DNA of 32,000 nt from Methanocaldococcus jannaschii DSM 2661 (GTDB lineage: Archaea > AGJL01 > Methanococci > Methanococcales > Methanocaldococcaceae), in contig NC_000909.1 in the NCBI RefSeq assembly GCF_000091665.1, positions 1,464,118-1,496,117 on the forward strand. Direction: 5' to 3'. This document shows, piece after piece, positions 10,452 to 32,000 of this stretch. Under the pieces are notes generated by a model. It was given only the letters and a program-made list of their open reading frames with translations, made no database searches and was not told the DNA's origin. Numbering within the stretch: the first letter of the stretch is position 1; each line of letters begins with the position of its first letter. The translations under genes and the position numbers were made by a program.

Positions 10452-10461
10452 CTTTTTGGAG

Positions 10462-10860
10462 TTATTCCTCAATATTCTCTAAATATTCTTTAACAACATC
10501 CTCGAATTCTAATTCTTCTACCCATTTTTTCATATTGTTGCACCACTCTTCCATAGTCTTTTTTATAATCTTTTTCGTTTCTTCAAATGGAATTGCCTCA
10601 TAAACATAATAATACCCTCCATCTTTTATATTTACCTGCTTTCTCTTTACTAAACCAGCATTCATTAAATTTTGAACTGCTCTCTGAACTGTACTTCTAT
10701 CCCTATTAATTCTCTCAGCAATGTCGTTTATTTTTGAAGGGCCGTTTTTTAAAATATCAAAATAAACTTTGACATCAGAAACTTTTATACCAAAAACACA
10801 TGCCATTAAACTATCAAACGTCCAGGTTGTGCATGGAGTTTTTAATAAAAGTTTACTCAT
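10462..10860 (-). CDS. Winged helix-turn-helix transcriptional regulator (TrmB/MarR-like)
   Basis: HTH segment INDIAERINRDRSTVQRAVQNLMNAGLVKRK followed by a beta-wing (GGYYYVYEA). AGGTGAT SD and a TTTAAATATA box upstream. Confidence 0.7.
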   Translation of the reverse strand: MSKLLLKTPCTTWTFDSLMACVFGIKVSDVKVYFDILKNGPSKINDIAERINRDRSTVQRAVQNLMNAGLVKRKQVNIKDGGYYYVYEAIPFEETKKIIKKTMEEWCNNMKKWVEELEFEDVVKEYLENIEE

Positions 10861-10928
10861 ATTATCACCTTCATGGTTGTGGCATTGGCATTAACTAATT
10901 ATATCATTATATTTAAAGATTATCTTTT

Positions 10929-11023
10929 AATAGGACTTTCGCAGTCTATATTATTAAATTTGGAAAATAGATGCCTTTAGGTATCATTGTTCAATAAAAA
11001 TTTATTCCTGCGAAAGTCCTATT
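10929..11023. repeat. 95-bp inverted-repeat element, copy 2
   Basis: Same 16-bp TIRs (10929-10944 and 11008-11023), same length and orientation as copy 1. Shared internal blocks AAATTTGGA and TTCAATAAAAAT. The central hairpin GATGCC-ttta-GGTATC (10970-10985) has a different sequence but the same pairing. Confidence 0.85.
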
Positions 11024-12124
11024 TTAATACTTTCCATAAGTAAGAATTCTCACAATTCTTTCTCCACTTTTCCCATTTCCAAATGGATTTTTCCAATTTC
11101 TCTTTTTATTGAGCATTATTTCAACCGCTTTAATTAGCTTTTCTTTGTTATCACCAACTAATATATTAGCTCCAACTTCAACTGTTTCTGGCCTCTCAGT
11201 ATTGTCTCTCAAAGTTATACATGGGACTTTTAAGATACATGCCTCTTCTTGAACTCCTCCACTATCTGTTAAAATTAGCTCGGCATTTTTTTCCAGCATT
11301 AGAAATTCCAAATAGCCAACTGGCTCAATAATTTTTATTTTTTTATTGCTTTTTAGTTTATCAAACAAATTAAACTCTTTCAATCTTTTTTTAGTTCGTG
11401 GATGGATTGAGAAAATAATAGCTTTATCGTATATCTCAATTATCTCAAATATTCCCTCTACAATATTTTTTAATCTTTCTTTATTATCAACATTTTCAGC
11501 CCTATGTAGGGTTAATAAAAAATAATCATCATCAATAACAACACTATTAAAAAAAGCTCTAACGTTTTCATTTTTTTCAGCAATTTTTAAATTTTGTAGG
11601 GTGGCATCAACAATTGTATTTCCCACAACAAAAATCTTATTTTCTTCAATGCCCTCTCTTAATAAATTATTCTTAGCTATTTCAGTTGGAGCAAAGAGAT
11701 AACTGCTTATATGGTCAGTCAAAACTCTATTTATCTCCTCTGGCATGTTTCTATCAAAACTTCTTAATCCTGCTTCAACATGAGCTACATCTATCTTTAA
11801 TTTTGAGGCTACTAAAGCTCCTGCTAAAACAGTGTTTGTATCTCCCTGAACTACAACAACATCCGGTTTTTCTTTTAAAAGAACTTTTTCTATCTCTATT
11901 AACATCTTTCCTGTCTGCTCTCCATGAGTTCCAGAGCCAATATTAAGATTATACTTTGGATTTGGTAGATTTAACTCCTCAAAGAATATTTTATCCATAT
12001 TCTCAGAATAATGCTGATTAGTGTGGATGATATGCCAGTCTATGTTAGTTTTTTCTAAAGCTCTAATTATAGGAGAAAGTTTTATAATTTCAGGTCTTGT
12101 CCCTAAGATAATAGAGAGTTTCAT
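11024..12124 (-). CDS. wecB: UDP-N-acetylglucosamine 2-epimerase (non-hydrolysing)
   Basis: Family blocks ILGTRPEIIKLSP, VVVQGDTNT, HVEAGLRSFD, HRAENVD and TDSGGVQEEA. Confidence 0.9.
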   Translation of the reverse strand: MKLSIILGTRPEIIKLSPIIRALEKTNIDWHIIHTNQHYSENMDKIFFEELNLPNPKYNLNIGSGTHGEQTGKMLIEIEKVLLKEKPDVVVVQGDTNTVLAGALVASKLKIDVAHVEAGLRSFDRNMPEEINRVLTDHISSYLFAPTEIAKNNLLREGIEENKIFVVGNTIVDATLQNLKIAEKNENVRAFFNSVVIDDDYFLLTLHRAENVDNKERLKNIVEGIFEIIEIYDKAIIFSIHPRTKKRLKEFNLFDKLKSNKKIKIIEPVGYLEFLMLEKNAELILTDSGGVQEEACILKVPCITLRDNTERPETVEVGANILVGDNKEKLIKAVEIMLNKKRNWKNPFGNGKSGERIVRILTYGKY

Positions 12125-12126
12125 TT

Positions 12127-14463
12127 TTATCCCTCATATTCTGCTGTTAAAACCTCTCTAATCTTTTTAGCTCTCTCTTTTCCGACTCCTTCAACTTTCA
12201 TTAATTCCTCTTCTTTTGCTGTAAATACATTTTCAACTGTTTTAAAGTGCTTTAACAACCTCTCAGCTAATGCTCCACCAACGTCTGGCAAACTCTCAAC
12301 AATAAATTTCTGTTGTTCTTTTAAGGACATTGCTGTCTTTCCATACCTTACCATAACTGTTCTTTTCTCTTTTATTTGCTCTTTCTCAGCAATCTTTATT
12401 AATAAATCAGCTGTTTCTTCAGCATTTTTTGTAAATATTATTGGGATGCCAAAATCCAAAATTATTGATAAAATAGCCCCTTTAAGTGCATTTTCATGTA
12501 ATCTACTAAAGTTTTCACCTTCAACTATTAACAGAGGTTTTTCAACTTTTTTAAGATTTTTTAATTGGCTAAATAACCTCTTATCAATTATTGAATTTAC
12601 AAAGTCTTCAGCTGTCTTTCTCTCAACAACTACCCTATCACTTAAAACATAATCTCCCACTTCTAATGTTTTTAGCTCAATATTTGCATAATTATGTAAA
12701 AGCTTAGCCATATTCTTCTCTCTAACATCTACAATAATCTTTATTGGCTTTTTCGGAATTTTTATCTCTTGTTTTATTTTATCTTCTTCTGATTTAGACC
12801 TTTCCTTAACTTCAATCTGTTTAATGAAATCTAATATCGTTACTGGCTTTTTGGTTTTTTCTTCTTCCTCCTTAGTTTCTTCTTTTACTGCAGTTTTTGA
12901 TTCAATTTCTTTTTCTTTTATTTCTTCTGTCTCTTCCTTTATTTCCTCTTTAGATTTTTCTTCAAATTTCTTCTGTAACCTCTTATTTAGCAAATAACAC
13001 ATATTTTTTAATAATCTCTTCATCTCCCTTTCTTTGTATAAAGCACTCCTGTAATAAGCTTCATCAGCTGTTCCCTTAGCTATTAAAACATAAACCTTCC
13101 CTCCTTCTCCCCTCATCGCTCTACCTCTCCTCTGAATAAACCTAATTTCTGATGGCACTGGTTCATAAAATATGATGTAATTTACCGATGGAATATCTAT
13201 TCCCTCCTCAGAAACGCTTGTTGAAACTAAAACACTTCCCTCTTTTTTAAATCTCTCTATAGCTTCTATTTGCTCTTTCTGACTCATTCCCTTTCCTTCT
13301 TTATTTGCCTGTCCTATAAATCTTATTGCTTTAATTCCATTTTGAGTTAAGAGATTAACAATCTTCTCTACAGTGTCCCTATATTGAGCAAAGATAATAA
13401 TTCTCTCATCCTTATTTTTTTCCAAAATATTTTTAACCATATCAACAACTTTACCTAATTTTGGATGTTCTACATCTGATTTCATTAATAAATTAACTGC
13501 CTCTCTAACTTTTTCATCATTAACAATAGATTTAGCTGATTTTGTTCTTTGCATGGATAATTTATTTATATAGTTTAAAAATACACTCTTTCCTTGACTC
13601 TCTAAGAGTTCTTTGGCATGCATAAGTTTTAAAGCCTCTGAACAAACTTTTATAAGTTCATACTTCACTTCTTCATCATAGGAAAATAGCTTATTATTTA
13701 GCTCAATAAGTTCTGTTTTTGTTACATCGGCAATGGAATTTATAACTCCAGCATCTTTTAATATTTTTAATCTCTCCTTTAAAGCTTCATTTATTAATTT
13801 TAACGCTCTTTTAAATTCGTTGGGTAAATCAATTCTAATTGGGATAAGTTTTACTTTAGCAATGTATGGTTTTACATCCTCATCATCTTCAGTTCTCACT
13901 TCAACGTGCTCAATTCCTAAGTTTTCACAAATTTCCATGACTTTATCAATATCAGAACCTGGAGATGCCGTTAAACCTAAAATATGACATTTATCTTTAA
14001 ATTTTTTTGCTACAAATGCATAGGCATGGTCTCCTGTTGTGTGGTGGGCTTCATCAGCTATCAATAAAATAAATTCATCCACATTTATTCTTCCAGCTAT
14101 GATATCGTTTTCTATAACTTGTGGTGTAGCTATAAAGATTTTCCCTTTTTTATAGAGTTCAGCTCTCTTTTTTGGCTGGATTTTTCCAGTTAAAGCTATT
14201 ATTTTATCTTCATCAATGTTTAAAACCTGTTTTAATCTGTTGTAGTGTTGCTCAACCAAAGGTCTTGAAGGGGCTAAGATTAAAACCTTTCCATCCTTTT
14301 TTGTTAAAATACCTGCTATAACTAAAATAGCAATAGCTGTTTTACCTAAACCTGTCGATAAAACACATAATGTCTTTTTCTTTAAAGCATTTGCTGCAAT
14401 AATCTGCTGATACAACCTCGCCTCCAAAGTTTTTGGTTTTATTAATGGATGTTCAATAAACAT
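12127..14463 (-). CDS. hef: Hef-type helicase-nuclease (SF2 DEAH helicase + XPF/Mus81 ERCC4 nuclease + HhH2)
   Basis: Walker A STGLGKT, DEAH box (IADEAHH), motif VI QRRGRAMR. ERCC4 motif GDYVLSDRVVVERKTAEDF. Terminal HhH (VEGVGKERAKKI). The track start is TTG at 14481, and the ATG at 14463 (MFIEHP) is more likely. Confidence 0.9.
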   Translation of the reverse strand: MFIEHPLIKPKTLEARLYQQIIAANALKKKTLCVLSTGLGKTAIAILVIAGILTKKDGKVLILAPSRPLVEQHYNRLKQVLNIDEDKIIALTGKIQPKKRAELYKKGKIFIATPQVIENDIIAGRINVDEFILLIADEAHHTTGDHAYAFVAKKFKDKCHILGLTASPGSDIDKVMEICENLGIEHVEVRTEDDEDVKPYIAKVKLIPIRIDLPNEFKRALKLINEALKERLKILKDAGVINSIADVTKTELIELNNKLFSYDEEVKYELIKVCSEALKLMHAKELLESQGKSVFLNYINKLSMQRTKSAKSIVNDEKVREAVNLLMKSDVEHPKLGKVVDMVKNILEKNKDERIIIFAQYRDTVEKIVNLLTQNGIKAIRFIGQANKEGKGMSQKEQIEAIERFKKEGSVLVSTSVSEEGIDIPSVNYIIFYEPVPSEIRFIQRRGRAMRGEGGKVYVLIAKGTADEAYYRSALYKEREMKRLLKNMCYLLNKRLQKKFEEKSKEEIKEETEEIKEKEIESKTAVKEETKEEEEKTKKPVTILDFIKQIEVKERSKSEEDKIKQEIKIPKKPIKIIVDVREKNMAKLLHNYANIELKTLEVGDYVLSDRVVVERKTAEDFVNSIIDKRLFSQLKNLKKVEKPLLIVEGENFSRLHENALKGAILSIILDFGIPIIFTKNAEETADLLIKIAEKEQIKEKRTVMVRYGKTAMSLKEQQKFIVESLPDVGGALAERLLKHFKTVENVFTAKEEELMKVEGVGKERAKKIREVLTAEYEG

Positions 14464-14641
14464 AGTTATCCTACTCTTCAATTGTTCTTTAAAAATTATA
14501 AAAGTAGCAAAAAATAGTTTTTAGTATCTAATAGAACTTTTGTGTTTGCATATGACATTAGAATATTAAATTTATAACTTTACAAAAATATGGATATCGA
14601 CATATTGCCAATAAATTATTTATTCATTACGAGAGTTCTAT

Positions 14642-19634: not shown

Positions 19635-22600
19635 ATGATACCGATGATATATAAAGAGATGTGTCCTAACTGTAACGGAGAGATAACGAGTGAAAGGTTA
19701 GCTATAGGAGTTTGTGAAAAATGTTTAAAAGAAGAAAATGTTTTTGAAAAACTAAAATTATGTGAAAAACTTAGAGAAGAGAAAACTTTGAAAAATTTAA
19801 AAGATTATTGTATTATTTGGAATGAATTTAAAGAATTTGAAGAATTTGTAAAAGATTTAGGATTTGAACTTTTAAGTATTCAAAAGATGTGGGCTAAAAG
19901 GGTTTTAAAGAACAAGAGTTTTTCAATCGTAGTACCAACTGGAGTTGGAAAGAGCTTTTTTGGAATACTTATGAGCCTATTCTTAGCTAAGAAAGGGAAA
20001 AGATGTTATATAATTCTACCAACAACACTACTGGTTAAGCAAACTTATGAAAAAATATCCTCCTTAACAGAAAAAAATAACTTAAATATAAGAGTAGTTG
20101 CATATCATTCAGAACTCTCAACAAAGGAAAAGAAAGAGGTAAAGGAGAGGATTGAAAACAACGATTATGATGTTTTGATAACAACATCCAACTATCTAAC
20201 AAAAAACATGCCAAAATGCAAATTTGACTTTGTATTTGTTGATGATGTCGATGCATTGTTAAAAGCATCTAAAAACATTGACAGAACTTTAAAGTTGTTA
20301 GGATTTGATGAAGAGATAATAAATGAGGCATATAAAATCATCTACCTAATAAAGATTGGAAAGATAGAGGATGCAATGAAAAAGAGAGAAATTTTAAAGA
20401 AAAAAATATCTAAAATAAAGCATGGCTGTTTAATAATTGCTTCTGCAACTGGAAAGAGTTATGGGGATAGAGTTAAGCTTTACAGAGAGCTTTTAGACTT
20501 TGAAATTGGATTTGGAATGAATAAGCTTAGGGATGTTGTTGATATCTACGACGAGGAATTTAGCAAAGAGAAGATTTTGGAGTATATAAAATTATTTGGT
20601 TCTGGCGGAATTGTGTTCGTTTCAATTGACTACGGAGTTGAGAAAGCCCAAGAGATTGAAAAATATCTATTAGAAAATAATATCAAGGCAAAATTAATCC
20701 ATTCAAAGGATAAGAAGGGATTTGATGATTTCAGAGAGGGAAAGATTGATGTTTTGATTGGAGTGGCATCATACTATGGTGTCTTGGTTAGAGGTTTAGA
20801 CATGCCGGAAAGGGTTAGATATGCTATCTTTTATGGCATTCCGAAGTTTAAAATTAGATTAAAGGAGTATATAAACAGCTTAAAGGAGAAGGGAGAGTTA
20901 AAAGAAGATATTAACATAGAAGGAAAGACTGAGGAGGAAATTAGGCAGATAATAACTGAGAAATTAAAGATAAAGAACTTCTCTCTAAGGAAGGAGGATG
21001 ATGAATATCTATTGTTAATTCCAGATGTAAAAACCTATATCCAAGCATCTGGAAGAACTTCAAGGATGACAGAGTTTGGTTTGACTAAAGGGGCAAGTAT
21101 TGTATTGGTGGATGAGAAAGAGATTTTTGAAGCCCTCAAAAAGTATATGCTCTTTATGTATGAGAGTGAATTTAAAAGAATAGATGAGGTAAACTTAGAG
21201 GAGCTAATTAAAAAGATTGATGAAGATAGGGAGAAAATAAAAGTTGGAAGAGCCAAAGGAAAAGTCCCAGATTTGCTAAAATCTGTCTTAATGGTTGTAG
21301 AAAGCCCTAATAAGGCAAGAACTATAGCAAACTTCTTTGGAAAGCCCTCTGTTAGAAAGATAAACAACAGAAATGTCTATGAGGTTTGTATTGGAGATTT
21401 AAACTTGATTATAACTGCGAGTGGAGGGCATGTATTTGATTTGGTTACAAAAGAGGGTTTCTATGGGGTTAAAATAGAAAATAACTTGTATATTCCAATA
21501 TATACATCAATTAAAAAAGTGAATGGAGAGCAATTTACCGACCAAAAGGATTTGGAGGAGTTGATAAAGCAGTTAATGGAGAAAGGAGAGAGAGTAAATG
21601 CAATGGATGCTAAGGAGAACATAGAGATTATTAGGGAGATAGCCGATGAGGTTGATGCAATATTCATAGCAACCGATATCGATACAGAGGGAGAGAAGAT
21701 AGGATATGACATAGCCATAAATGCCCTCCCATTCAATAGAAATATCTACAGAGTAGGATTTAATGAGATTACAAAGAGGGCAATATTAAAGGCAGTTGAA
21801 TCATTTAAAAAAGGAGAAGAACTTAGCTTAGATGAAAATAAAGTTAAAGGACAGGTAGTTAGAAGGATAGAAGATAGATGGATTGGATTTAGGTTGAGTC
21901 AAAAGCTTTGGGAGGTATTTAATAAAAACTACCTCTCAGCTGGTAGAGTTCAAACACCAGTGTTAGGATGGATTATTGAGAGATACAATGAACATAAAAT
22001 AAAAGTCCCTTATCTATCTCTAAAATTGGAAAATGACATATATATTGGAAAGATTTGGGAAGATGAGTTTGATAAGGATGAGGTTGAAGTTGAAGTTAAA
22101 GTTTATGAGAAGGAGATTCCTCCATTACCTCCATTCACAACAGACACATTGTTAGAGGAAGCTACAAAGAGATTTGGATTAAGCACCGATGAAATAATGT
22201 CTATAGCTCAAGAGCTTTTTGAGTTAGGGTTATGTTTAACTCCAGATACCTATGTTGTGTTAGGGGATGGAAGAATTGAAACAATTGAAGACATTGTTAA
22301 TGCTAAGGAAAGAAATGTTTTATCATTAGATTTAGATAATTTATCAATAAAAATAGATACAGCCATTAAATTCTGGAAATTGAGATATAATGGAAACCTA
22401 AGTAAAATTACTCTTTCGAACAATTATGAGCTAAAGGCAACTCCAGACCATTGCTTATTGGTTTTAAGAGACAATCAACTAAAATGGATTCCTGCAAAAG
22501 ATATTAAGGAAAATGATTACATTGCAATGCCATTTAACTATAAAGTTGAAAGAAAGCCAATCTCCCTATTAAATCTTCTGAAATATTTGGATATTACTGA

Positions 22601-24476
22601 TGTATTAATAGAGTTTGATGAAAACTCCACAATATTTGAAAAAATAGCTGAATATATTAGAAACAATATTAAAACAAGCACAAAATACAAATATCTAAGA
22701 AATAGAAGAGTCCCGTTAAAATATCTAATTGAGTGGAATTTTGATTTGGATGAGATTGAGAAAGAGGCAAAATACATATATAAAAGCGTTGCAGGAACTA
22801 AAAAAATTCCATTGTTTAAGTTAGATGAGAGGTTTTGGTATTTTGCAGGTTTGGTATTGGGAGATGGAAGCATTCAAGATAGCAAAATTAGAATTGCACA
22901 AACACCATTAAAGGATGTTAAAAGCATATTGGATGAGACATTCCCATTCTTACACAATTGGATTTCTGGTAACCAAGTGATTATTTCAAATCCAATTATT
23001 GCTGAAATTTTGGAAAAATTAGGAATGAGAAATGGAAAATTAAACGGAATTATCTTCTCTCTCCCAGAAAGTTATATAAATGCATTAATTGCTGGATATT
23101 TTGATACAGATGGATGCTTCTCCCTACTTTATGATAAAAAGGCAAAAAAACATAATTTAAGAATGGTTTTAACATCAAAAAGAAGAGATGTTTTAGAAAA
23201 GATAGGCATTTATCTAAACTCAATTGGTATTCTAAATACTTTACACAAAAGTAGAGAAGTTTATTCCTTAATAATAAGCAATAAGTCCTTAGAAACCTTT
23301 AAGGAAAAGATTGCGAAATATTTAAAGATTAGAAAAGAGGCATTTATAAATGGTTATAAAACATATAAGAAGGAGCATGAAGAAAGATTTGAATGTGATT
23401 TATTGCCAGTAAAAGAGGTATTTAAGAAATTAACATTTGAAAAGGGAAGAAAGGAAATTCTAAAAGATAGCAAAATACACATTGAAAATTGGTATAAAGA
23501 GAAAACAAATAACATCCCAAGAGAAAAATTAAAGACAGTGCTAAGATATGCAAATAATTCAGAACATAAAGAGTTTTTAGAAAAGATTGTTAATGGAGAT
23601 ATATCCTTTGTTAGAGTTAAAAAAGTAGAAAATATTCCTTATGATGGATATGTCTATGATTTAAGCATTAAACATAACCAAAACTTTATATCAAATGGAG
23701 TTATCTCACACAATTGCACATATCACAGAACCTCTTCAACAAGAGTTTCATTGGATGGGATGAGAGTAGCAAGAGAGTATCTAAAACTAAACAATTTAGA
23801 GGATTATTTAAAAAATAGAGAATACTTTATGGAAGGAGCTCATGAATGTATAAGACCAACAAAACCAATGAATACCGATGAGTTAATAGAGTTTTTAAAG
23901 GAAAATAACATAAAGCTAACTAAAAATCATATAAAAGTTTATGATTTGATATTTAGAAGATTTATAGCCTCTCAGATGAAAGAGGCTGTTGTTGAATATG
24001 AAGAGATTTATATAAAAGATTTAGATGAGAAGGTTGAGGGATATGTTGATATAAAGTTTGATGGTTGGAGTAGAATTTATAATCTAAAATTAAAAAAGCT
24101 TCCAAGGATTGAAAAGAGCAGTTTAAAAGTTTTAGACAAAAAACTTAGAAAGATTCCAAAAGTTCCATTGTATGATGAGGGAGAGGTTGTTAAGTTGATG
24201 AAAGAGAGGGGTATTGGAAGACCTTCAACCTATGCCCAAATTATTAAAAAGCTGTTAGATAGGGGATACGTAGTTAAAAGTAAAGATAAGAATAAGTTAA
24301 TCCCAACAAAGCTGGGAATTGAAGTCTATAATTATTTGATAAACAATTATCCTCACTTAATATCTGAAGAGAGAACAAGGGAGTTGGAGGAGATTATGGA
24401 TAAGATTGAAAATGGAGAAGTTGATTACATAGAAGTGCTAAAAGCTTTACATGAGGAGATTTTGAGTATAAGATAG
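19635..24476 (+). CDS. rgy: Reverse gyrase (helicase-like domain fused to type IA topoisomerase), interrupted by an intein
   Basis: N-terminal zinc finger CPNCNG...CEKC, Walker A PTGVGKS, DDVD box, Toprim (VESPNKA ... DIDTEGEKI), and topo IA active-site block TYHRTSST after the intein. 1613 aa including a 494-aa intein. Confidence 0.97.
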   Translation: MIPMIYKEMCPNCNGEITSERLAIGVCEKCLKEENVFEKLKLCEKLREEKTLKNLKDYCIIWNEFKEFEEFVKDLGFELLSIQKMWAKRVLKNKSFSIVVPTGVGKSFFGILMSLFLAKKGKRCYIILPTTLLVKQTYEKISSLTEKNNLNIRVVAYHSELSTKEKKEVKERIENNDYDVLITTSNYLTKNMPKCKFDFVFVDDVDALLKASKNIDRTLKLLGFDEEIINEAYKIIYLIKIGKIEDAMKKREILKKKISKIKHGCLIIASATGKSYGDRVKLYRELLDFEIGFGMNKLRDVVDIYDEEFSKEKILEYIKLFGSGGIVFVSIDYGVEKAQEIEKYLLENNIKAKLIHSKDKKGFDDFREGKIDVLIGVASYYGVLVRGLDMPERVRYAIFYGIPKFKIRLKEYINSLKEKGELKEDINIEGKTEEEIRQIITEKLKIKNFSLRKEDDEYLLLIPDVKTYIQASGRTSRMTEFGLTKGASIVLVDEKEIFEALKKYMLFMYESEFKRIDEVNLEELIKKIDEDREKIKVGRAKGKVPDLLKSVLMVVESPNKARTIANFFGKPSVRKINNRNVYEVCIGDLNLIITASGGHVFDLVTKEGFYGVKIENNLYIPIYTSIKKVNGEQFTDQKDLEELIKQLMEKGERVNAMDAKENIEIIREIADEVDAIFIATDIDTEGEKIGYDIAINALPFNRNIYRVGFNEITKRAILKAVESFKKGEELSLDENKVKGQVVRRIEDRWIGFRLSQKLWEVFNKNYLSAGRVQTPVLGWIIERYNEHKIKVPYLSLKLENDIYIGKIWEDEFDKDEVEVEVKVYEKEIPPLPPFTTDTLLEEATKRFGLSTDEIMSIAQELFELGLCLTPDTYVVLGDGRIETIEDIVNAKERNVLSLDLDNLSIKIDTAIKFWKLRYNGNLSKITLSNNYELKATPDHCLLVLRDNQLKWIPAKDIKENDYIAMPFNYKVERKPISLLNLLKYLDITDVLIEFDENSTIFEKIAEYIRNNIKTSTKYKYLRNRRVPLKYLIEWNFDLDEIEKEAKYIYKSVAGTKKIPLFKLDERFWYFAGLVLGDGSIQDSKIRIAQTPLKDVKSILDETFPFLHNWISGNQVIISNPIIAEILEKLGMRNGKLNGIIFSLPESYINALIAGYFDTDGCFSLLYDKKAKKHNLRMVLTSKRRDVLEKIGIYLNSIGILNTLHKSREVYSLIISNKSLETFKEKIAKYLKIRKEAFINGYKTYKKEHEERFECDLLPVKEVFKKLTFEKGRKEILKDSKIHIENWYKEKTNNIPREKLKTVLRYANNSEHKEFLEKIVNGDISFVRVKKVENIPYDGYVYDLSIKHNQNFISNGVISHNCTYHRTSSTRVSLDGMRVAREYLKLNNLEDYLKNREYFMEGAHECIRPTKPMNTDELIEFLKENNIKLTKNHIKVYDLIFRRFIASQMKEAVVEYEEIYIKDLDEKVEGYVDIKFDGWSRIYNLKLKKLPRIEKSSLKVLDKKLRKIPKVPLYDEGEVVKLMKERGIGRPSTYAQIIKKLLDRGYVVKSKDKNKLIPTKLGIEVYNYLINNYPHLISEERTRELEEIMDKIENGEVDYIEVLKALHEEILSIR
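22233..23714 (+). mobile_element. Intein (494 aa) with LAGLIDADG homing-endonuclease domain, inside rgy
   Basis: Starts with Cys (CLTPDTYVVLGDG, block A). Block B is ATPDHCLLV. LAGLIDADG motifs are YFAGLVLGDGSI and LIAGYFDTDGCF. Ends in VISHN, followed by a +1 Cys. Removing it restores ELGL-CTYHRTSST. Confidence 0.95.
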
Positions 24477-24480
24477 TGAA

Positions 24481-25479
24481 TTATCCAACGTAGTTCAGTA
24501 GCATTTTCCCTTTTTCACTTATTCTTATATATTTTGACTTACCTATTTTTTCTGGTTTTTCTATCAATTCCAATTCTAAGAGTTTTTCAACAACATTTTT
24601 ATTAACCCAAACCAAATCACTCTGCCCAGTAGAACTAACTGAACTCCTACACTTTTTCCTCCAAGTAATAATCTTCTTCAAATCATCAACATCACTCCCA
24701 ACGACCTCCTTTAACTCTCTAACTAAATTCTTCATTTTTTTAACAGATGAGTTGCTAACAGATTCCTTTCTCTCCACTGCTTTAATTAACTCTTTTATAC
24801 TCTCATTATCATTTAAATCCACGTTTAAAAACTCTTCTTTTGTTAAAATACTAAGTTCTTTTATAGTTAATCCTCTATTTCCAGCCCTGCCAATGAACTT
24901 CAAAAATATTAGCAACTCTTCCCTTGGCAAAGTTACTTCAAATGGATAGATTAGCTTAACACCTCTAACGCCAAAACTTCTTGGCAAATAAGGGCAGTTA
25001 TATTTACTTTCATATTCTTTTTTTAATTCTTCCTTTTCTTTTTCAGAGAGGCCATCTAAAGATTTCTCTGGCATTACATAATATGGAATAATCCTTGAAT
25101 TTTCCTTATTTAATATCATTGCACAGGTTATGCCAGCAATACACCCAATTGTAGAGCCAGAAGATACGTTAATATAGAATTTAACATCTCCAAATTCTTT
25201 TCTCTCATGAGCTATAATTAACTTCATCTTTTTAACAATATCATCTAAATCAAACAAATCTGCCTCTACAATCTCATAATTAACCCGCTTTTCTTCAAAC
25301 TTTTTAATAATAACATTTTTAAATGCTTTTCCTCGTTTTGAATCATTATTTCCAGGTTTGCAAATTAAATAAACTTTTTCAGCCCTCCTCATTATTGGAA
25401 CTTCTGTAATTCTATCTACTTCATAACCTTGAACTGCTATATGAACTCCACCTCTTATTTTCTCTAAATCATTTGTCAT
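24481..25479 (-). CDS. Csa3/CARF-like Rossmann domain fused to C-terminal winged-helix (putative ligand-sensing regulator)
   Basis: The N-terminal pattern of about 140 aa (VHIAVQGYEVDRI ... KVYLI ... FYINVSSGSTIGCIAGITCAMIL) resembles the Csa3/HFX_2341-type fold. The C-terminus (EKLLELELIEKPEKIGKSKYIRISEKGKMLL) looks wHTH-like. The likely start is ATG at 25479, after an AGGTGA SD (track start is GTG at 25488). Confidence 0.5.
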   Translation of the reverse strand: MTNDLEKIRGGVHIAVQGYEVDRITEVPIMRRAEKVYLICKPGNNDSKRGKAFKNVIIKKFEEKRVNYEIVEADLFDLDDIVKKMKLIIAHERKEFGDVKFYINVSSGSTIGCIAGITCAMILNKENSRIIPYYVMPEKSLDGLSEKEKEELKKEYESKYNCPYLPRSFGVRGVKLIYPFEVTLPREELLIFLKFIGRAGNRGLTIKELSILTKEEFLNVDLNDNESIKELIKAVERKESVSNSSVKKMKNLVRELKEVVGSDVDDLKKIITWRKKCRSSVSSTGQSDLVWVNKNVVEKLLELELIEKPEKIGKSKYIRISEKGKMLLNYVG

Positions 25480-25491
25480 TTTACTCACCTT

Positions 25492-25533
25492 TAGTAAGGA
25501 CAGTAACTACATTAAGGTTACTAAGATAGTAAG
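25492..25533. promoter_or_regulatory. Candidate operator repeats in the divergent intergenic region
   Basis: TAGTAAG occurs at 25492-25498 and 25527-25533, flanking the inverted repeat AGTAAC-n9-GTTACT (25502-25522). Confidence 0.3.
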
Positions 25534-25596
25534 TATTATTTATACTCTCTCATATTAAATTATTCATGAGCATTACAAAACCAAAGTTGTGATACT

Positions 25597-25959
25597 ATGG
25601 AGTATGTGTTTGTTTATGGGAGTTTAAGAAAGGGCTTCTGGAATCATGAACCATATTTAAAAAACTCTAAATTCATTGGAAAAGGAAAAACTAAGGAAAA
25701 ATACGCTATGTATGTCAATATCATCCCCTATGTTGTTGAAAATGAAAAAATCTCTCATATCGTTGGGGAAGTTTATGAGGTTGATGAAAAAACGTTAAAA
25801 AGAATTGACTGCCTTGAAGGACATCCTGATTATTATAGAAGAAAGAAAGTTTCGATAATTTTAGATTCTGGAAAGGAGATAGAGGCTTGGCTTTATTTTT
25901 ATCCAGAATCTTGTGGAATTCTGGTAGAATCTGGAGATTATAAGGATTATAGGGGATAA
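25597..25959 (+). CDS. Gamma-glutamylcyclotransferase-fold protein (AIG2/GGACT-like)
   Basis: N-terminal YGSLRKG motif, GEVYEV strand, and LEGHPDYY containing the conserved catalytic Glu context. Confidence 0.8.
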   Translation: MEYVFVYGSLRKGFWNHEPYLKNSKFIGKGKTKEKYAMYVNIIPYVVENEKISHIVGEVYEVDEKTLKRIDCLEGHPDYYRRKKVSIILDSGKEIEAWLYFYPESCGILVESGDYKDYRG

Positions 25960-25961
25960 GC

Positions 25962-27029
25962 ATGTGTGAGTTGCTTGGAATTTGCTTTAATAAGAAAGTT
26001 AATGTTGAGTTATCATTAAATAGCTTTAAGCATAGGAGTGAAGATCATCCAAATGGTTGGGGGATTGCATTTTATCCAGATGGGTTTGTTAGGGTAATAA
26101 AAGAGCCGATTAAAATGAATGAAGCTTTATTAGCTGAATGTGTCAGATGGACTAAGATAAAATCAAATATATTCATTGCCCACATAAGAAAGGCAAGTGC
26201 TGGAAGTGAATCTTACGTAAATACCCATCCATTTGTTAGAAAATTAGAAGATAAAGAAATAGCATTTGCTCACAATGGAACTCTACTTGGATATGAGGAT
26301 TTAGAGCTTGATGGCTATTATCCAATTGGAGAGACGGATTCGGAGTATGTATTCTGCTATTTATTATCTCAAATTGAAAAGAGGGAGATTGAGTGGAATA
26401 AAGAGGGTTTTGATGAGATGTTGGATATACTGCTTGATATTAATTACTATGGAGCTTTTAATTGCTTATTCTCCGATGGAGAGTATTTATTTGCCTATAA
26501 AGATTATAGAGGGAGGAGAGAGTTGCATTTCCTAAAGAGAAAGCCACCTTATGGAAGAATTAGATTGGAGGATGAGGATTATATTATAAACTTAGGAGAT
26601 GTTAAAAGTGTGAGAGAAGAAGGGTTTATTATAGCTACAAATCCTCTAACTAATGAAGATTGGAAGTCTTTTGAAAATGGAGAACTTATGGTGTTTAAAA
26701 ATGGGGAAATGATTTACTCTAATAAGAGATTGACAGATTTGGAATTGAAAATCTTAAAAATCCTTAGAGAAAGTCCCCATAGAGTCAGTTTAAAGAAAAT
26801 AATTGAAAATCTTGAGTATTTATCCAGAAATATAAGACATGATGCTTCCGTTGTGAGAATTGGGATTAGAAGTTTGTTGGATAAGGGATATATCAAGCAA
26901 GATAGTAGAGACACTGTCAATTGGGATGATTTAGAGGCAACATTTTATACTAAACCAGAAAAGAGGGTAGAGATTGATAAAAGGCTTAAAGGATTTAGAT
27001 GGAGAAGAAATAGGATAATTATGAGTTAA
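25962..27029 (+). CDS. Class II (Ntn) glutamine amidotransferase domain (YafJ/EgtC-like) fused to a C-terminal wHTH-like domain
   Basis: Met-Cys2 nucleophile (MCELLG), HPNGWGIA, HIRKAS..SESYVNTHPF and FAHNGTL blocks. The last 100 aa or so (LTDLELKILKILRESPHRVSLKKIIENLE ... LLDKGYIKQ) resemble a winged helix. Starts 2 nt after the GGCT stop. Confidence 0.8.
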   Translation: MCELLGICFNKKVNVELSLNSFKHRSEDHPNGWGIAFYPDGFVRVIKEPIKMNEALLAECVRWTKIKSNIFIAHIRKASAGSESYVNTHPFVRKLEDKEIAFAHNGTLLGYEDLELDGYYPIGETDSEYVFCYLLSQIEKREIEWNKEGFDEMLDILLDINYYGAFNCLFSDGEYLFAYKDYRGRRELHFLKRKPPYGRIRLEDEDYIINLGDVKSVREEGFIIATNPLTNEDWKSFENGELMVFKNGEMIYSNKRLTDLELKILKILRESPHRVSLKKIIENLEYLSRNIRHDASVVRIGIRSLLDKGYIKQDSRDTVNWDDLEATFYTKPEKRVEIDKRLKGFRWRRNRIIMS

Positions 27030-27050
27030 TTTAATAATAGAATTGAGGTG

Positions 27051-27347
27051 ATGGCGATGAATGAAATAGAACTAATGCAAATTAAAGATTTTGTAAAAGA
27101 CATGGATAAAAATCAACGAATTGTGTATTATGAGCAGAAGAAAAAGAGTGTCGGTATTGCAGTATTGCTTAGCTTCATAATTCCAGGAGCAGGGCAAATG
27201 TATCTTGGAAGGGTTGGAAAGGGAATAATATTGTTATTAACATGCTGGCTTATTATACCATGGATTTATAGCATTTATGATGCCTACAAGTCAGCAAAGG
27301 ATTACAATGCCCAACTTTATTCAATAATCTTCAGCAAAGATGATTAA
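27051..27347 (+). CDS. TM2-like two-helix membrane protein
   Basis: The soluble N-terminus is followed by IPGAGQMYLGRVGKGIILLL, a GxGxxYxGxxxxG motif between two TM helices. The track start is GTG at 27048. ATGs at 27051 and 27057 follow a GAGG SD. Confidence 0.55.
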   Translation: MAMNEIELMQIKDFVKDMDKNQRIVYYEQKKKSVGIAVLLSFIIPGAGQMYLGRVGKGIILLLTCWLIIPWIYSIYDAYKSAKDYNAQLYSIIFSKDD

Positions 27348-27907: not shown

Positions 27908-28744
27908 ATGGTGAAGCTTATGAATTTGTGGAGTGAGAGGATTAAAGATAGGGAAGTTGTTGAAGTTATTGGCTGTGAGAGAGTGCCATTGAATGAAACG
28001 TTGAATGAGATTGTAGTATTATTTGACGAATATACAAAAAGAGGGGATTATAAGGTAGAGATATTTGATGATGTCTTTAATTATTATCATAATAGAATTT
28101 TAACTAATGATGAGTTTATTGATGGTGTTGCAAGAATAAAATTGGGATTGGACACAAGAAATCATGCTAAAGAGTGGTTATTGGAAGTAGTAAATTGGTT
28201 TGCTGGTAATAGATATAATTTAAGAGATGAGGAGATAAAGTTAGGGAATAGATTGAGAGATTGGATGAATATTGGAGTTTCTTTAGTAATTCCTAAAGAG
28301 TTAAAGCCAAAGTTTGATGAGTTTTATAAAATGGCTAAAAAATTTGATTGGCAAGTAGAAATTAGGAATGAGATGATATTTAAGACAACTTTAAATGGTA
28401 AGGAAGTTTATACTTTTATATTGATGGGGGATGTGGTTAATGAGAGGTTAGATAACATCTTAGATGGTGGAGGAGTTTTTGATTTAGGGAAGAGGGTTGT
28501 TTGTGATGATGAGTGGTTTAGTGGGTGGTTAGTTAGGGATATTGATGTTAATAAAAATATAATGGAAGTGTTGGGCATGTTGAGTTTGAAAAGCCAGGAA
28601 ATTCTGGATATTTCAGTGGAGAGTGCTTTAATAAGAAGGAAAAATATAAAGACAAAAAGTATGGTAGTAAAATTGGTAAAAGTAAAAAATCTAATCCAAC
28701 TATTGAAAAGAAAAAAGAAAAGTGGGCTGAATTGCTTAGTATAA
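27908..28744 (+). CDS. Hypothetical soluble protein (278 aa), no recognisable motif
   Basis: Long ORF tightly coupled to the upstream membrane genes. Trp/acidic-rich (DEWFSGWLV). The Lys-rich tail overlaps the alternative frame of the next ORF. Confidence 0.55.
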   Translation: MVKLMNLWSERIKDREVVEVIGCERVPLNETLNEIVVLFDEYTKRGDYKVEIFDDVFNYYHNRILTNDEFIDGVARIKLGLDTRNHAKEWLLEVVNWFAGNRYNLRDEEIKLGNRLRDWMNIGVSLVIPKELKPKFDEFYKMAKKFDWQVEIRNEMIFKTTLNGKEVYTFILMGDVVNERLDNILDGGGVFDLGKRVVCDDEWFSGWLVRDIDVNKNIMEVLGMLSLKSQEILDISVESALIRRKNIKTKSMVVKLVKVKNLIQLLKRKKKSGLNCLV

Positions 28745-29856
28745 TCTTTGGTTCAAAACCTCGTGAAGACGAAATCGACAGTGTAGATAGATACATGACA
28801 AAACTATTCCTTCGCATAATTTTCATTCCAGATTACACTAACAAAATACATGATTTGAGTGAAAATGTTTCTAAAAATATTAAAAATCTTATCATGGAAT
28901 TAAAAAGTGGAAATATATTTGAAATTAACAAAATTCTGGATGATTTAGAATATAATATTTACACAATTGATGATGAGTCTTTAACAATCAAAGAGAGAGT
29001 TTATAATGCAGTTGAGATAATATTTAAGGTAGTATCTAACGAAATACTAAGAACGGAAAGCATAGATGACAAAGAATTAGAAATTATTAAAAAACTGCAT
29101 GAATTAGTGGTGTTAACTGATAAAGTCCTTAGAATTACTTACAATTCACTTAATAGAAGTTTAGAAGATATTAATAGCTATAGAAGGATTATAGCTAATA
29201 ACAATCTTCCAGATGACATTATTCGTAGGTTAAACATAATAAACGCCTACATTGAGAAAATTAAGAGTGATATATTAAGTATGAGAGAAAATGAGCAAAG
29301 AGTATTGATTATTTGCCTATCAAAGTTTTATAATTTATATTTATCAAAAGATAAAAAAGAAAGAGAAAAATTGGCAGATGAAATTAAAAATTTAATAGAA
29401 TATCTATATTTTGATTGGTATTATGACTTTATTGATAACATTGGAGAATATGAGTTTAAGTTTATAAAAAATATAGCCGCTATGTGTTTGCTATATGATT
29501 ATACAAAAGAATTGGAGAAAGATGGTAGTAAAGAGATGTTTAACCATGTAATTTTCAAAATTTTGAGAAATGGAGGTTTTAAAGTTAAAGAGTATGATAT
29601 TATTGAGACATTGTTGAATATTAGGGAAAATTTACCTAAATCATCTAAGATAGATGTTAGATACTTTGATAAGGAGTTAATAAAGATTATTAGAGGAATT
29701 GTTAGAGAATCAAAAAAGGATGTGTTTTATAATAATATGAAGAGGTTGAAGGAGTTTGTTGAAGAGCTAAGAGAGATGGAAAAGAAATTAAGTGAGGCTA
29801 ATAATATAACTCTACATGATTTGAGGAAATTGGGGTTTAATGATATGTTTCTTTGA
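28732..29856 (+). CDS. Hypothetical all-helical protein (up to 374 aa), no recognisable motif
   Basis: Long ORF. The track start is TTG at 28732, and the first in-frame ATG is at about 28795 (MTKLFL). The frame is already open from 28555. Confidence 0.55.
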   Translation: MLSIIFGSKPREDEIDSVDRYMTKLFLRIIFIPDYTNKIHDLSENVSKNIKNLIMELKSGNIFEINKILDDLEYNIYTIDDESLTIKERVYNAVEIIFKVVSNEILRTESIDDKELEIIKKLHELVVLTDKVLRITYNSLNRSLEDINSYRRIIANNNLPDDIIRRLNIINAYIEKIKSDILSMRENEQRVLIICLSKFYNLYLSKDKKEREKLADEIKNLIEYLYFDWYYDFIDNIGEYEFKFIKNIAAMCLLYDYTKELEKDGSKEMFNHVIFKILRNGGFKVKEYDIIETLLNIRENLPKSSKIDVRYFDKELIKIIRGIVRESKKDVFYNNMKRLKEFVEELREMEKKLSEANNITLHDLRKLGFNDMFL

Positions 29857-29971
29857 TAATTATTAGGTTTGTTTATATAGATAATAAGATTGTAAAATAC
29901 TTTAATAAATAAAAGTTAAAAAATATAAATATTACTTCTACTTAATATTAAAATAAAGCTGAGGTGGTATC

Positions 29972-32000
29972 ATGAGAAATTTAATATCTTTGATAGCGTG
30001 GCATGATTCTGGATGGAATGGTAGAGTTTGTAGAAATCCAAAAGAAAATAAATATTGTGAGAGCTTTGGATATGTGATAAGAAAGAGAAAGTATGAATTT
30101 TGTGTAAATAATCCAGATGCTAATTTAGGAAATTCAAGAGAAAGAGCATGTAGTGAAGCAATAGTATTTTGTAAAGGGAAAGTACAGGAGCATAACATAA
30201 GATTTCCAGCAATATTTTATGTTGATAGAAAAAACAGAAATGAACATGAAATAAAAATGATAAAAAAAGAAATTGAAGAACAATTAAGAATGATTAACGG
30301 AAAATACGCAATACTTTATGTTAGAGAAAATCCTTTATCTGAAAATAGAGTAATAGTCGGATGTGTTAAAATAAAGGAAATAATAGATGGTAGCAAGGAT
30401 TACATTAGAAAAAAACAGAGTCCTAATAGAGTAGGAAGAGGCATTGTTTTTGATGTAGAGAATGATGTAATATTTGCTTTACCTTATCAAGAACTCTTAG
30501 AATACTGCAAAAATAAAAATAAAGAAATTGAAGAAATTCTAAAAGAATTTAATTTAATTTTTGAAGTTGGGGACTTTGAAAGATACTTTAAAGGCATGTC
30601 TAACTTTATATCCGATGAGGTGGCAGTCCAAATTCTTAAAAAAGGGCTTGAAATTGTTGAGGAATTCAATAAATTTAGAGAAGAAAATCAGGACTTTGAT
30701 AAATACTTAACTGATGAGAATATAGCATTTAGACCTCATGTTATGAAAAAGTTTGATGAATTCGCTGAAAATATAAAAAAGGTTATTGCAGAACTTGAAG
30801 GTAGTAAATATAAATATCCTGGACTTCCTGGAGTTCTTTATTTCTTAGGAATGGAAGATGCTTACTCAAGATATATTGAACTTTGGAAAAATGAAGGAGA
30901 AAAAGGAGAAGAGAAACTTTATAATGCATTAATTGAAAGTTTAGAAAATAGAAAAGAAAATTTAGAGTTTGGAATTACAAAAAAGGTTATAGACAAATTT
31001 ATAGCACAGAAGGAAGAGTTTAGAGAGTTTTTAAAAAATTATGCTGTTTATTATGAGTTATCTGCATTTAAACTTGAAAAAATTAAGGAACAATATGAAA
31101 AAGAATTTATTAATTTAGATAACATAATAAAAAATCCATACATTTTGGTTGAGGATTTAAAAGAAAATGATAGTTTTGAAAGGATAATATTTGAAGAGCT
31201 TGACTCATGGGAAAGAAGAAGATTGGGGGATAAATTTAATCCTTACAGTCCATATAGAGTTAGAGCTTTATTGGTTGAAATTCTAAAAAGGCATTTAAGT
31301 TCAGGAAACACTACAATTTCAACAAAAGACCTTAAAGATTTCTTTGAAAAAATGGATAAAGACATTGTAAAGATAACTTTTGATGAATTTTTAAGGATAA
31401 TTGAGGAATATAAAGACATAATATCTGAAAAAGTTGAAATAGTCAAAAAAGAAGTTAAAAATAATGAAAATAAAGAAATTATTGAATTATTTACCCTAAA
31501 AGAAATTAGAGAATATGAGGAGATAATTGAAAATACCATAAATTATCTCTTAAAGTCGAAAGCTCCAAATATTGATTTGAATCCATTAGAAATTAGAGAA
31601 AAATTAAGAATAAAAAACGAAAATAAAAAACCAGCGGGAGTTGATAATGAAGAATATGAAAAAGCTTTAGATATGCAAACTGAGGCAGTTGTAAATCTAC
31701 TTAAAAATAGAGTTGGAATATTAACAGGACCAGCAGGCACTGGAAAAACAACGGTCATAAAAACAATTATGGAATTAATGAAGGAAGTGCTTGGATTAAA
31801 TAAAATCTACATATTAACACCAACTGGAAAGTCAGCAATGGTCGTTAATGAAAAATTAAATAATTTAGCAACTGCAAAAACAATACATAGATATATTGCA
31901 GAGGAATTTAAAGATTATTTTGAGGGAGATAATTATTTCATCCTTAGATTGGATAAAATAACTGGTAATGACAAGAAAGAAATTGATGCTTTAATTATAG
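29972..32000 (+). CDS. Large multidomain protein, partial (runs off the window): Trp/Cys-rich N-terminal module + long helical region + RecD-like SF1 helicase core
   Basis: Not in the ORF track. I translated 676 codons from the ATG at 29972 (GAGGTGG SD 4 nt upstream) to 32000 without a stop. Helicase motif I GPAGTGKTT (nt 31727-31753, residues 586-594), motif Ia LTPTGKSA, and then AKTIHRYI. The N-terminus is AWHDSGWNGRVC with Cys at residues 20, 29, 44, 60 and 67. Confidence 0.85.
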   Translation, partial: MRNLISLIAWHDSGWNGRVCRNPKENKYCESFGYVIRKRKYEFCVNNPDANLGNSRERACSEAIVFCKGKVQEHNIRFPAIFYVDRKNRNEHEIKMIKKEIEEQLRMINGKYAILYVRENPLSENRVIVGCVKIKEIIDGSKDYIRKKQSPNRVGRGIVFDVENDVIFALPYQELLEYCKNKNKEIEEILKEFNLIFEVGDFERYFKGMSNFISDEVAVQILKKGLEIVEEFNKFREENQDFDKYLTDENIAFRPHVMKKFDEFAENIKKVIAELEGSKYKYPGLPGVLYFLGMEDAYSRYIELWKNEGEKGEEKLYNALIESLENRKENLEFGITKKVIDKFIAQKEEFREFLKNYAVYYELSAFKLEKIKEQYEKEFINLDNIIKNPYILVEDLKENDSFERIIFEELDSWERRRLGDKFNPYSPYRVRALLVEILKRHLSSGNTTISTKDLKDFFEKMDKDIVKITFDEFLRIIEEYKDIISEKVEIVKKEVKNNENKEIIELFTLKEIREYEEIIENTINYLLKSKAPNIDLNPLEIREKLRIKNENKKPAGVDNEEYEKALDMQTEAVVNLLKNRVGILTGPAGTGKTTVIKTIMELMKEVLGLNKIYILTPTGKSAMVVNEKLNNLATAKTIHRYIAEEFKDYFEGDNYFILRLDKITGNDKKEIDALII

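Follow-up and report, generated by a model that had tools for sequence, protein, structure and literature searches.

A gene at the edge of a Methanocaldococcus jannaschii chromosomal window as a predicted archaeal member of the candidate defence family PDC-S68, with a conserved N-terminal module ahead of a RecD2-like helicase motor

In a 32,000-nt stretch of the Methanocaldococcus jannaschii DSM 2661 chromosome (NC_000909.1, positions 1,464,118 to 1,496,117 of the forward strand; assembly GCF_000091665.1), hereafter referred to as the window, the plus strand is open from an ATG at position 29972 up to the window edge at position 32000. This open frame is a real gene and its frame is correct. 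Judged by its sequence, the product is a member of PDC-S68, a single-gene candidate family of the PADLOC collection, and it adds to this catalogued family an archaeal, thermophilic member. What is new here is the domain anatomy of the family, including ~320 conserved N-terminal residues that, from the sequence comparisons, have no described relatives. We consider, with a probability of roughly 0.55, that the open reading frame (ORF) is the N-terminal ~60% of a single-polypeptide sensor-motor-nuclease, encoded by an accessory defence-type gene on a Methanococcales-type chromosome.

Direct translation of the plus strand from 29972 to 32000 gave 676 codons with zero stops. At the base composition of the window (30% G+C), roughly one codon in 12 would be a stop, and the chance of a stop-free run of this length is ~1e-26. 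The remaining five frames of the same region contain 18–118 stops each. The nearest in-frame stop on the 5′ side lies at 29960, and thus the ATG at 29972 is the first possible start. The list of ORFs that accompanied the window shows only four short antisense ORFs over the gene (29938–30198, 30487–30669, 31243–31539, and 31543–31758); the gene itself is missing because the lister omits ORFs running off the source, which is a mechanical artefact. The original prediction, made from the sequence alone, had pointed to this long unlisted frame, and the translation bears it out. The motifs quoted there are likewise all present: WHDSGWNGRVC (aa 10–20), YAILYVRENPLSENRVIVGCVKIKEI (aa 112–137), GPAGTGKTT (aa 586–594), LTPTGKSA (aa 615–622), and TIHRY (aa 637–641). 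The frame is also supported by end-to-end alignment with the closest homologs, P0001 and P0002 (1,151 and 1,160 aa; 78% and 71% identity, respectively). Furthermore, an independent contig (L002; 2,909 nt, from run ERR9765772) is identical to positions 29366–32000 of the window (2,635 nt) save one base, and it extends the frame by 274 nt (91 codons), in which a Walker B motif (DESSMVD) and a helicase motif III (GDINQLPPV) are found. The G+C content of the gene is 27.3%, with 17.6% at third codon positions; these values are somewhat lower than those of its neighbours, the mean of the window being 30.2%.

The family assignment is based on hidden Markov models (HMMs) of PADLOC. Three of them, PDLC05066 (E 1.5e-52), PDLC05065 (E 3.8e-52), and PDLC05064 (E 4e-36), all belonging to PDC-S68, cover aa 113–676; the best one aligns aa 115–645 with profile positions 148–658 of 1202. 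None of the PADLOC models for SauUSI-, Nhi-, Hna-, or Hhe-type systems matched better than PDC-S68. The PADLOC phage defence candidates (PDCs) comprise 145 families, delineated from genes lying within BREX, DISARM, and type I RM (restriction-modification) systems (bioRxiv 10.1101/2024.01.29.577857; see also PMC12988326). Literature searches for a RecD2-like defence enzyme of the same architecture gave nothing specific.

The motor part was examined with Pfam, NCBIfam, and the PDB. Pfam matches were obtained for AAA_19 (E 1e-17), AAA_30 (E 5e-11), and HHH_RecD2 (E 2e-9), those for AAA_19 and AAA_30 being above the cut-offs, and a PDB sequence search with a full-length homolog gave RecD and RecD2 as the best matches. 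The RecD/AAA_30-like motor named in the original prediction is in agreement with these results. The ATPase motifs are intact, and the motif set of the RecD-like superfamily 1B (SF1B) helicases is present: motifs I and Ia lie in the window, Walker B and motif III in the extension given by L002, and UvrD_C_2 and SH3_13 in the homolog P0001, whose motor is complete in Pfam (AAA_19/AAA_30, SH3_13, and UvrD_C_2). The NCBIfam RecD2 model, TIGR01448, aligns aa 319–648 with its positions 102–396; the score of 93.5 bits does not reach its equivalog cut-off of 500 bits, and so the motor is RecD2-like, not RecD2 itself. By analogy with the RecD/RecD2 family, 5′→3′ motor activity on single-stranded DNA (ssDNA) is expected. 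These alignments also divide the 585-aa N-terminal extension that had been described ahead of the helicase. It proved to be composite: aa ~319–565 correspond to the ordinary RecD2 accessory region, while aa 1–~320 stay unexplained, and no known replication or repair domain matches the latter.

The layout of the entire protein can be seen in the full-length relatives of 1,100–1,160 aa, which have four parts in the following order: the N-terminal module (aa 1–~325), the RecD2 helix-hairpin-helix region (aa ~319–565), the SF1B motor (from aa 566), and a C-terminal module of ~150 aa that would lie beyond the window. A word-based protein search with the whole query gave only 12 proteins, in which the named Methanococcales species besides that of the window are two; the best homologs belong to Methanotorris igneus, Methanocaldococcus indicus, and metagenomes of hydrothermal type. 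In the C-terminal module, the residues R27-S28, E31, E48-P49, P60-D61-F62, W73-E74-H75, and G77 are invariant in seven of seven sequences. A Pfam search with this module was without matches. When its profile was compared with the PDB, the Bax1 nuclease domain matched at E 0.048, the PDF and E-x-G columns falling in line, and T7 endonuclease I matched at E 1.2. On this weak evidence, the C-terminal module is probably a nuclease of the PD-(D/E)xK type.

The N-terminal module is found well beyond these close relatives. A profile built from ten diverse N-termini retrieved 344 proteins at E ≤ 1e-3, ranging from archaea to bacteria; none of them carries a precomputed Pfam domain, and many are the same long architecture in fragmented or frameshifted form. 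An exhaustive single-sequence search with aa 1–260 gave 46 matches, mostly to the first ~40 residues and mostly in proteins of 1,100–1,370 aa. Together with the full-length alignment, the 344 proteins confirm what had been proposed for the N-terminus, namely that it is a conserved module fused to a translocase. Conservation was assessed in two sets, of 61 members and 129 sequences. Across them, W10, H11, D12, W15, G17, C20, P23, N26, C29, C60, E62, F66, Y116, K118, P121, R126, G130, H160, G167, F168, P171, and Y172 are invariant or at least 90% conserved, and C20, C29, C60, Y116, P121, P171, and Y172 are invariant family-wide. The invariant P171-Y172 pair, which belongs to a PYQEL motif, ends the beta-rich core of the N-terminal domain. 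Within the Cys-rich insertion that follows the first strand, W10, D12, W15, and G17 are at least 90% conserved. In the same insertion, C20, P23, N26, C29, and C60 are invariant in the 61 members and at least 90% conserved in the 129 sequences; the 90% level is reached by H11 and S61 in the former set and by E62 in the latter.

Five cysteines in the first 67 residues had been noticed previously, and they are located at C20, C29, C44, C60, and C67. The proposal of zinc binding attached to them is partly supported. Three of the five (C20, C29, and C60) are invariant and H11 is at least 90% conserved, whereas conservation of C44 is confined to the archaeal-type subgroup and some bacteria, and C67 shows none. 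From this residue pattern, a structural metal site of the Cys3His or Cys4 type, composed of C20, C29, and C60 with H11, is plausible.

Structure models of the module are confident. The AlphaFold2 model of aa 1–325, computed from 129 sequences, has a predicted local distance difference test score (pLDDT) of 89.8 and a predicted template modelling score (pTM) of 0.87; it consists of a beta-rich domain, with a 70-residue Cys-rich insertion after the first strand, and then a helical bundle (aa 172–324). The isolated domain (aa 1–185) gave a pLDDT of 82.6. No Pfam, PDB, or structural match was found for the all-helical module (aa 186–325). With the model of aa 1–325, Foldseek found nothing in the PDB at E ≤ 0.001, and its top matches, all non-significant, were 2p5d (MJECL36), 1wmm (PH1033), a YTH domain, cereblon, and an ASCH domain. 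With aa 1–185, 49 of the 50 top PDB entries were PUA-like by our reading, in which the aligned part of multidomain targets is assumed: EVE/UPF0310 (2p5d), ASCH (3iuw), YTH, Lon-N/cereblon, and the SRA-like domains of AspBHI, MspJI, and SUVH6. These matches are also non-significant (best E 0.027, probability ≤ 0.35, template modelling score (TM) ≤ 0.31). Among the viral models of BFVD, the top matches were to DUF3850 (E 0.017), which we take to be ASCH-like. Across all the Foldseek lists, the E values are 0.017 or higher, with probabilities of at most 0.54, TM of at most 0.38, and root-mean-square deviations of 5–14 Å. The EVE, ASCH, YTH, Lon-N, and SRA-like domains form one superfamily (the PUA clan of Pfam, PUA domain-like in SCOP). 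Thus, the resemblance to PUA-like and EVE-type barrels noted in the original prediction is echoed in the identity of the structural neighbours, almost all of which are PUA-like, but in no significant score, and the tests with Pfam and with hhalign profiles were negative. We regard a very divergent PUA-like barrel as the best available reading of the modelled N-domain, one that is not established; a new fold is the alternative. The N-terminus of the M. igneus McrB protein was also considered as a relative of the module and was dropped, as it is mostly helical.

The sensor-motor-nuclease that we favour would function as follows. The N-terminal module would be the specificity element and would bind some feature that foreign nucleic acid carries (a flipped-out base, a modified base, or a DNA end being the most plausible), while the structural metal site would stabilise the Cys-rich insertion. 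This engagement would license the RecD2-type motor to translocate 5′→3′ on ssDNA, and the C-terminal nuclease would then cut the tracked DNA. In outline, such a protein would be a type IV-like, helicase-coupled restriction enzyme built on an SF1B motor. A more specific form of this idea, to which we give a low probability, is that aa 1–~325 are a metal-stabilised and extremely divergent PUA-like reader of a modified or damaged base, or of a DNA end, on invading DNA, which licenses the RecD2-type 5′→3′ motor and the nuclease. The family would then constitute a new class of helicase-coupled, modification-dependent restriction enzymes, present in hyperthermophilic archaea and in bacteria and encoded by one gene or a split pair.

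A number of observations weigh against a defence enzyme of this design. PDC-S68 is a computational candidate family only, whose name was found in no searchable paper. The window ends inside the gene, and the 274 nt added by L002 are short of the C-terminus and of the downstream neighbours. The nuclease assignment rests on the E value of 0.048, and the C-terminal module is absent from some relatives (P0008, P0009, and P0011). As for the reader, its assignment to the N-terminal module is not significant by Foldseek; no EVE, ASCH, YTH, SRA, or Lon-N match was found by Pfam at E ≤ 10 in the 61 members; and an HMM search of PDB sequences with the module gave nothing relevant. Comparison by hhalign gave a probability of 0.3% with an ASCH profile, which is weak evidence since this profile (E. 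coli YqfB-type) is shallow, its listed sequences all being at least 83% identical. It gave 0.1% with an EVE profile made of four PDB chains, which were retrieved with a bait consensus and form a shallow profile (Neff, the effective number of sequences, ~1.9). With regard to the location, the surrounding genes of the window are housekeeping ones (Hef, TYW3, UDP-GlcNAc 2-epimerase, reverse gyrase, and others), and the sole defence-flavoured neighbour is a CARF3/HFX_2341 protein 4.5 kb upstream. The locus in which CARF3, GGACT, GATase, TM2, and, after further genes, the helicase follow one another is syntenic in M. jannaschii, M. igneus, and M. indicus, which also fits a vertically inherited chromosomal function. 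Finally, a copy from Bathyarchaeia has housekeeping neighbours.

The last of these points would also suit a housekeeping helicase-nuclease of DNA repair or recombination, that is, an archaeal enzyme comparable to RecD2 or Dna2, or to XPB-Bax1, whose N-terminal module recognises damage or DNA ends in genome maintenance. RecD2 is a repair and replication-restart helicase. The RecD2-type accessory region and motor are consistent with such a role, as are the sole PDB resemblance of the C-terminal module, to Bax1, the nuclease partner of archaeal XPB, the synteny among the three species, and the housekeeping genes around the Bathyarchaeia copy and in the rest of the window. However, several features make this role unlikely. 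One is the patchy distribution, with only the 12 proteins and two further named Methanococcales species mentioned above; another is the RecD2 score far below the equivalog cut-off. Hef, a canonical archaeal SF2 helicase with an ERCC4 nuclease and HhH2 (12127–14481, minus strand), is encoded in the window 15 kb upstream of the gene, and thus the genome already has a housekeeping helicase-nuclease distinct from it. A further feature is the recurrent placement of the relatives, in unrelated lineages, beside McrBC, type IV restriction, DISARM-like, SIR2, and toxin or insertion sequence genes.

This placement was seen as follows. In M. igneus, McrB and McrC genes lie directly downstream of the ortholog, and the order of the syntenic locus is CARF3/HFX_2341, GGACT, GATase_4, TM2, variable genes, and helicase. 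The upstream genes recur in M. indicus, where they directly adjoin the helicase gene, and an ATPase_2 gene lies on its downstream side. A second Methanocaldococcus genome (L009) has a paralog in two pieces, an N-module gene of 278 aa and a helicase gene of 829 aa, within an island of McrB, McrC, SACS, and Upf1-like helicase genes. The Haliea member (1,271 aa) comes after an AspBHI-like type IV enzyme, a set of DISARM-like genes (a large helicase, MZB, and PLD), and a NERD-UvrD helicase, while that of Longimicrobiales has SACS/NOV_C genes on one side and a SIR2 gene on the other. Around a fragmented copy in a bacterium lie HepT, BrnT, and two IS110 elements. Several copies of the family are split or frameshifted, and one metagenome-assembled genome (L005) carries two copies 3.5 kb apart; the frequency of such split or frameshifted copies and the tandem duplicate would be unusual for a core repair gene. 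The contig scan based on the N-domain alignment relied on a single narrow peptide pattern; the 5 loci it gave serve as context only, not as statistics.

Some further observations concern these loci. The split pairs occupy L009 8001–11450 and L005 16331–19065, where an N-module ORF of 278 or 178 aa precedes a helicase ORF of 829 or 699 aa, and in L005 an intact copy without the nuclease module lies 3.5 kb upstream of the pair (9923–12844). SACS proteins are encoded just upstream of the members in Longimicrobiales (L007 4192–9892, with NOV_C) and in Methanocaldococcus (L009 1700–3808), which may be a recurrent association. In M. igneus (L003 1796–4172), genes of the MJECL32 and MJECL33 families adjoin the CARF3 gene. 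Both families take their names from the large extrachromosomal element of M. jannaschii, which also encodes MJECL36, the top Foldseek neighbour of the N-domain; this is a hint of exchange between the element and the present chromosomal region.

It is also possible that the protein is a defence enzyme whose N-terminal module does not read nucleic acids or modified bases. The module would then be a new fold that senses a protein (e.g., a viral one), serves in regulation or oligomerisation, or is a second catalytic domain, and the PUA-likeness would be a coincidence among generic small barrels. The failure to find any significant structural neighbour in the PDB or BFVD despite the confident models, together with the lack of a Pfam or hhalign link to EVE or ASCH, is in line with this idea. 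Likewise, the conserved polar residues (H11, D12, N26, E62, K118, R126, and H160) would also suit an active site, and the module can exist as a separate gene beside the helicase. Nevertheless, the neighbour lists are not random small barrels: about six PUA-like families fill the 49 of the 50 top PDB matches, and DUF3850 tops the viral list. Moreover, the conserved aromatic residues W10, W15, Y116, F168, and Y172 may fit a base-binding cage, and type IV restriction commonly relies on a reader that is fused with a translocase and a nuclease. On balance, a non-reading module appears doubtful.

The single base that distinguishes L002 lies in a homopolymer, where the A7 run of the window is an A6 run that splits the gene into a 153-aa product (P0112) and an ORF of at least 560 aa. 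That the locus is a pseudogene or an assembly artefact, the true sequence carrying the A6 frameshift and no full-length protein being made, is very improbable, given that the A7 frame aligns continuously through the run with every homolog, that both gene halves in L002 are still open and 100% conserved, and that the stop-free length is hardly due to chance. The window gene is intact because its A7 frame matches all the homologs across the homopolymer; no stop codon or frameshift interrupts it, though the second assembly has one. From these facts, the A6 run looks like a miscall of the homopolymer or a variant that arose recently in the population, not like decay. It could reflect an error in sequencing or, for a gene of the defence type, a genuine on/off variant. 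Another A7 run lies at 30262–30268.

The features of the gene are collected in Table 1.

Table 1. Features of the PDC-S68 gene and its upstream region, in window positions
Feature	Position	Strand	Remarks
Candidate archaeal TATA box TTTATATA	29872..29879	+	93 nt 5′ of the ATG, in a 115-nt AT-rich intergenic spacer; consensus resemblance only
Shine-Dalgarno-like GAGGTGG	29961..29967	+	4 nt 5′ of the start codon; read from the sequence
Partial coding sequence, first 676 codons of a predicted ~1,150-aa helicase-nuclease (PADLOC PDC-S68)	29972..32000	+	Runs off the window edge
N-terminal domain, aa 1–185	29972..30526	+	Beta-rich core; strands at about aa 4–7, 80–84, 112–118, 126–133, 136–139, 153–159, and 166–169; helix 91–108 (AlphaFold2)
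Cys-rich insertion, aa 8–77, between the first two strands	29993..30202	+	Contains WHDSGWNGRVC (29999–30031); candidate metal-binding site; pLDDT 72–93
Strand-loop-strand block YAILYVRENPLSENRVIVGCVKIKEI, aa 112–137	30305..30382	+	Conserved; bacterial consensus SLCFFYAKxTPLSExxRRVIVGVGRV
A7 homopolymer inside the coding sequence, codon ~146	30409..30415	+	A6 in the otherwise identical contig L002 (L002 1044–1049)
All-helical module, aa 186–325	30527..30946	+	Invariant P283-G284 of the YPGLPG motif; AlphaFold2 pLDDT mostly >90
HHH_RecD2 helix-hairpin-helix accessory domain, aa 358–447	31043..31312	+	Pfam 37.7 bits versus cut-off 27; within the RecD2-like stretch aa ~319–565
Start of SF1B helicase domain 1A, aa 566–676	31667..32000	+	AAA_19/AAA_30 matches; cut by the window edge
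Walker A, GPAGTGKTT	31727–31753	+	Read directly
Motif Ia, LTPTGKSA	31814–31837	+	Read directly
TIHRY	31880–31894	+	Read directly

Upstream of the helicase gene, four genes keep their order and orientation in M. jannaschii (window 24481–27347), M. igneus (L003 4302–7143), and M. indicus (L004 7182–10001). They encode a CARF3/HFX_2341-like protein (minus strand), a GGACT/AIG2-like gamma-glutamyl cyclotransferase, a class-II glutamine amidotransferase (GATase_4), and a small TM2-domain membrane protein. The GATase_4 protein has a weak CARF3-like match at its C-terminus, and no Pfam match was found for the fourth ORF of the M. indicus cluster (115 aa). The four genes may by themselves form a signalling or effector module linked to CARF. 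In the window, the TM2 gene and the helicase gene are separated by two overlapping ORFs, 27908–28744 (278 aa) and 28732–29856 (374 aa), which have no Pfam or PADLOC matches and recur only in the closest metagenomic relative (L001), there with a deletion and frame changes. The same slot holds a 638-aa TPR protein and a 173-aa ORF in M. igneus and nothing in M. indicus; this interval behaves like a variable cargo slot. The two ORFs were considered as partners or paralogs of the N-terminal module and were rejected, as they have no family matches, are degraded in the closest relative, and are absent from the other loci. The agreement in length (278 aa) of one of them with P0050 is a coincidence. 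Elsewhere in the window, the reverse gyrase gene (19635–24476; zf_Rg, DEAD/Helicase_C, Toprim, and Topoisom_bac) contains a LAGLIDADG homing-endonuclease intein at aa ~874–1360.

Apart from CRISPR and restriction-modification, little of the antiviral immunity of archaea has been mapped out. PDC-S68 now gains a concrete predicted anatomy, in which a conserved sensor module precedes a RecD2-like motor and a nuclease, as well as a confident model of a module without described relatives, a short list of invariant residues, and homologs from mesophilic bacteria. If the N-terminal module does read modified bases, a new reader family and an SF1B-based design would be added to type IV restriction. If it is not a reader, the result is still the correct annotation of a gene dropped by an ORF lister at the window edge.

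The relation of the protein to known systems can be summarised from its parts. With PDC-S68 itself it shares direct HMM membership, the length of the full-length relatives (~1,100–1,270 aa, like the profile), and the location of relatives within or beside DISARM-like, RM, and McrBC loci, as the method of PDC discovery requires. The present copy differs in that it is archaeal, comes from a hyperthermophile, and is cut at aa 676, and the family was catalogued without described domains or mechanism. With RecD2 (Deinococcus radiodurans, 3E1S/3GP8; TIGR01448), it shares the HHH_RecD2 accessory domain and the AAA_30/AAA_19 domain 1A, to which the full-length homolog adds SH3_13 and UvrD_C_2; by contrast, the usual N-terminus of RecD2 is replaced by an unrelated module of ~320 aa, and a nuclease-like domain is appended at the C-terminus. 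In archaeal XPB-Bax1 (6p66), a helicase is paired with a nuclease of similar type, and the C-terminal module of the relatives aligns to the Bax1 nuclease including PDF and E-x-G, although the match is weak; the helicase of Bax1, XPB, is a separate SF2 protein, and Bax1 has no counterpart of the N-terminal module. The EVE/UPF0310 (MJECL36 2p5d and PH1033 1wmm), ASCH (3iuw, YqfB, and DUF3850), and YTH domains supply the best structural neighbours that the N-domain model has, and almost all of them, and the order of elements in EVE is presumably similar (an N-terminal strand, a helix, and an 'FFYxx...IVGxGxV' strand pair); these domains, however, lack the 70-residue Cys-rich insertion and the tightly associated helical bundle. 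Lastly, SauUSI, Nhi, Hna, and Hhe join a specificity domain, a translocase driven by nucleoside triphosphates, and a nuclease in one chain and lie in defence islands beside McrBC-type systems, as is predicted from sequence for PDC-S68. Their motors are SF2 or Upf1-like and their nucleases are of the PLD or Vsr type, whereas the present family would combine an SF1B RecD2-like motor with a putative Bax1-like PD-(D/E)xK nuclease and a previously undescribed sensor domain.

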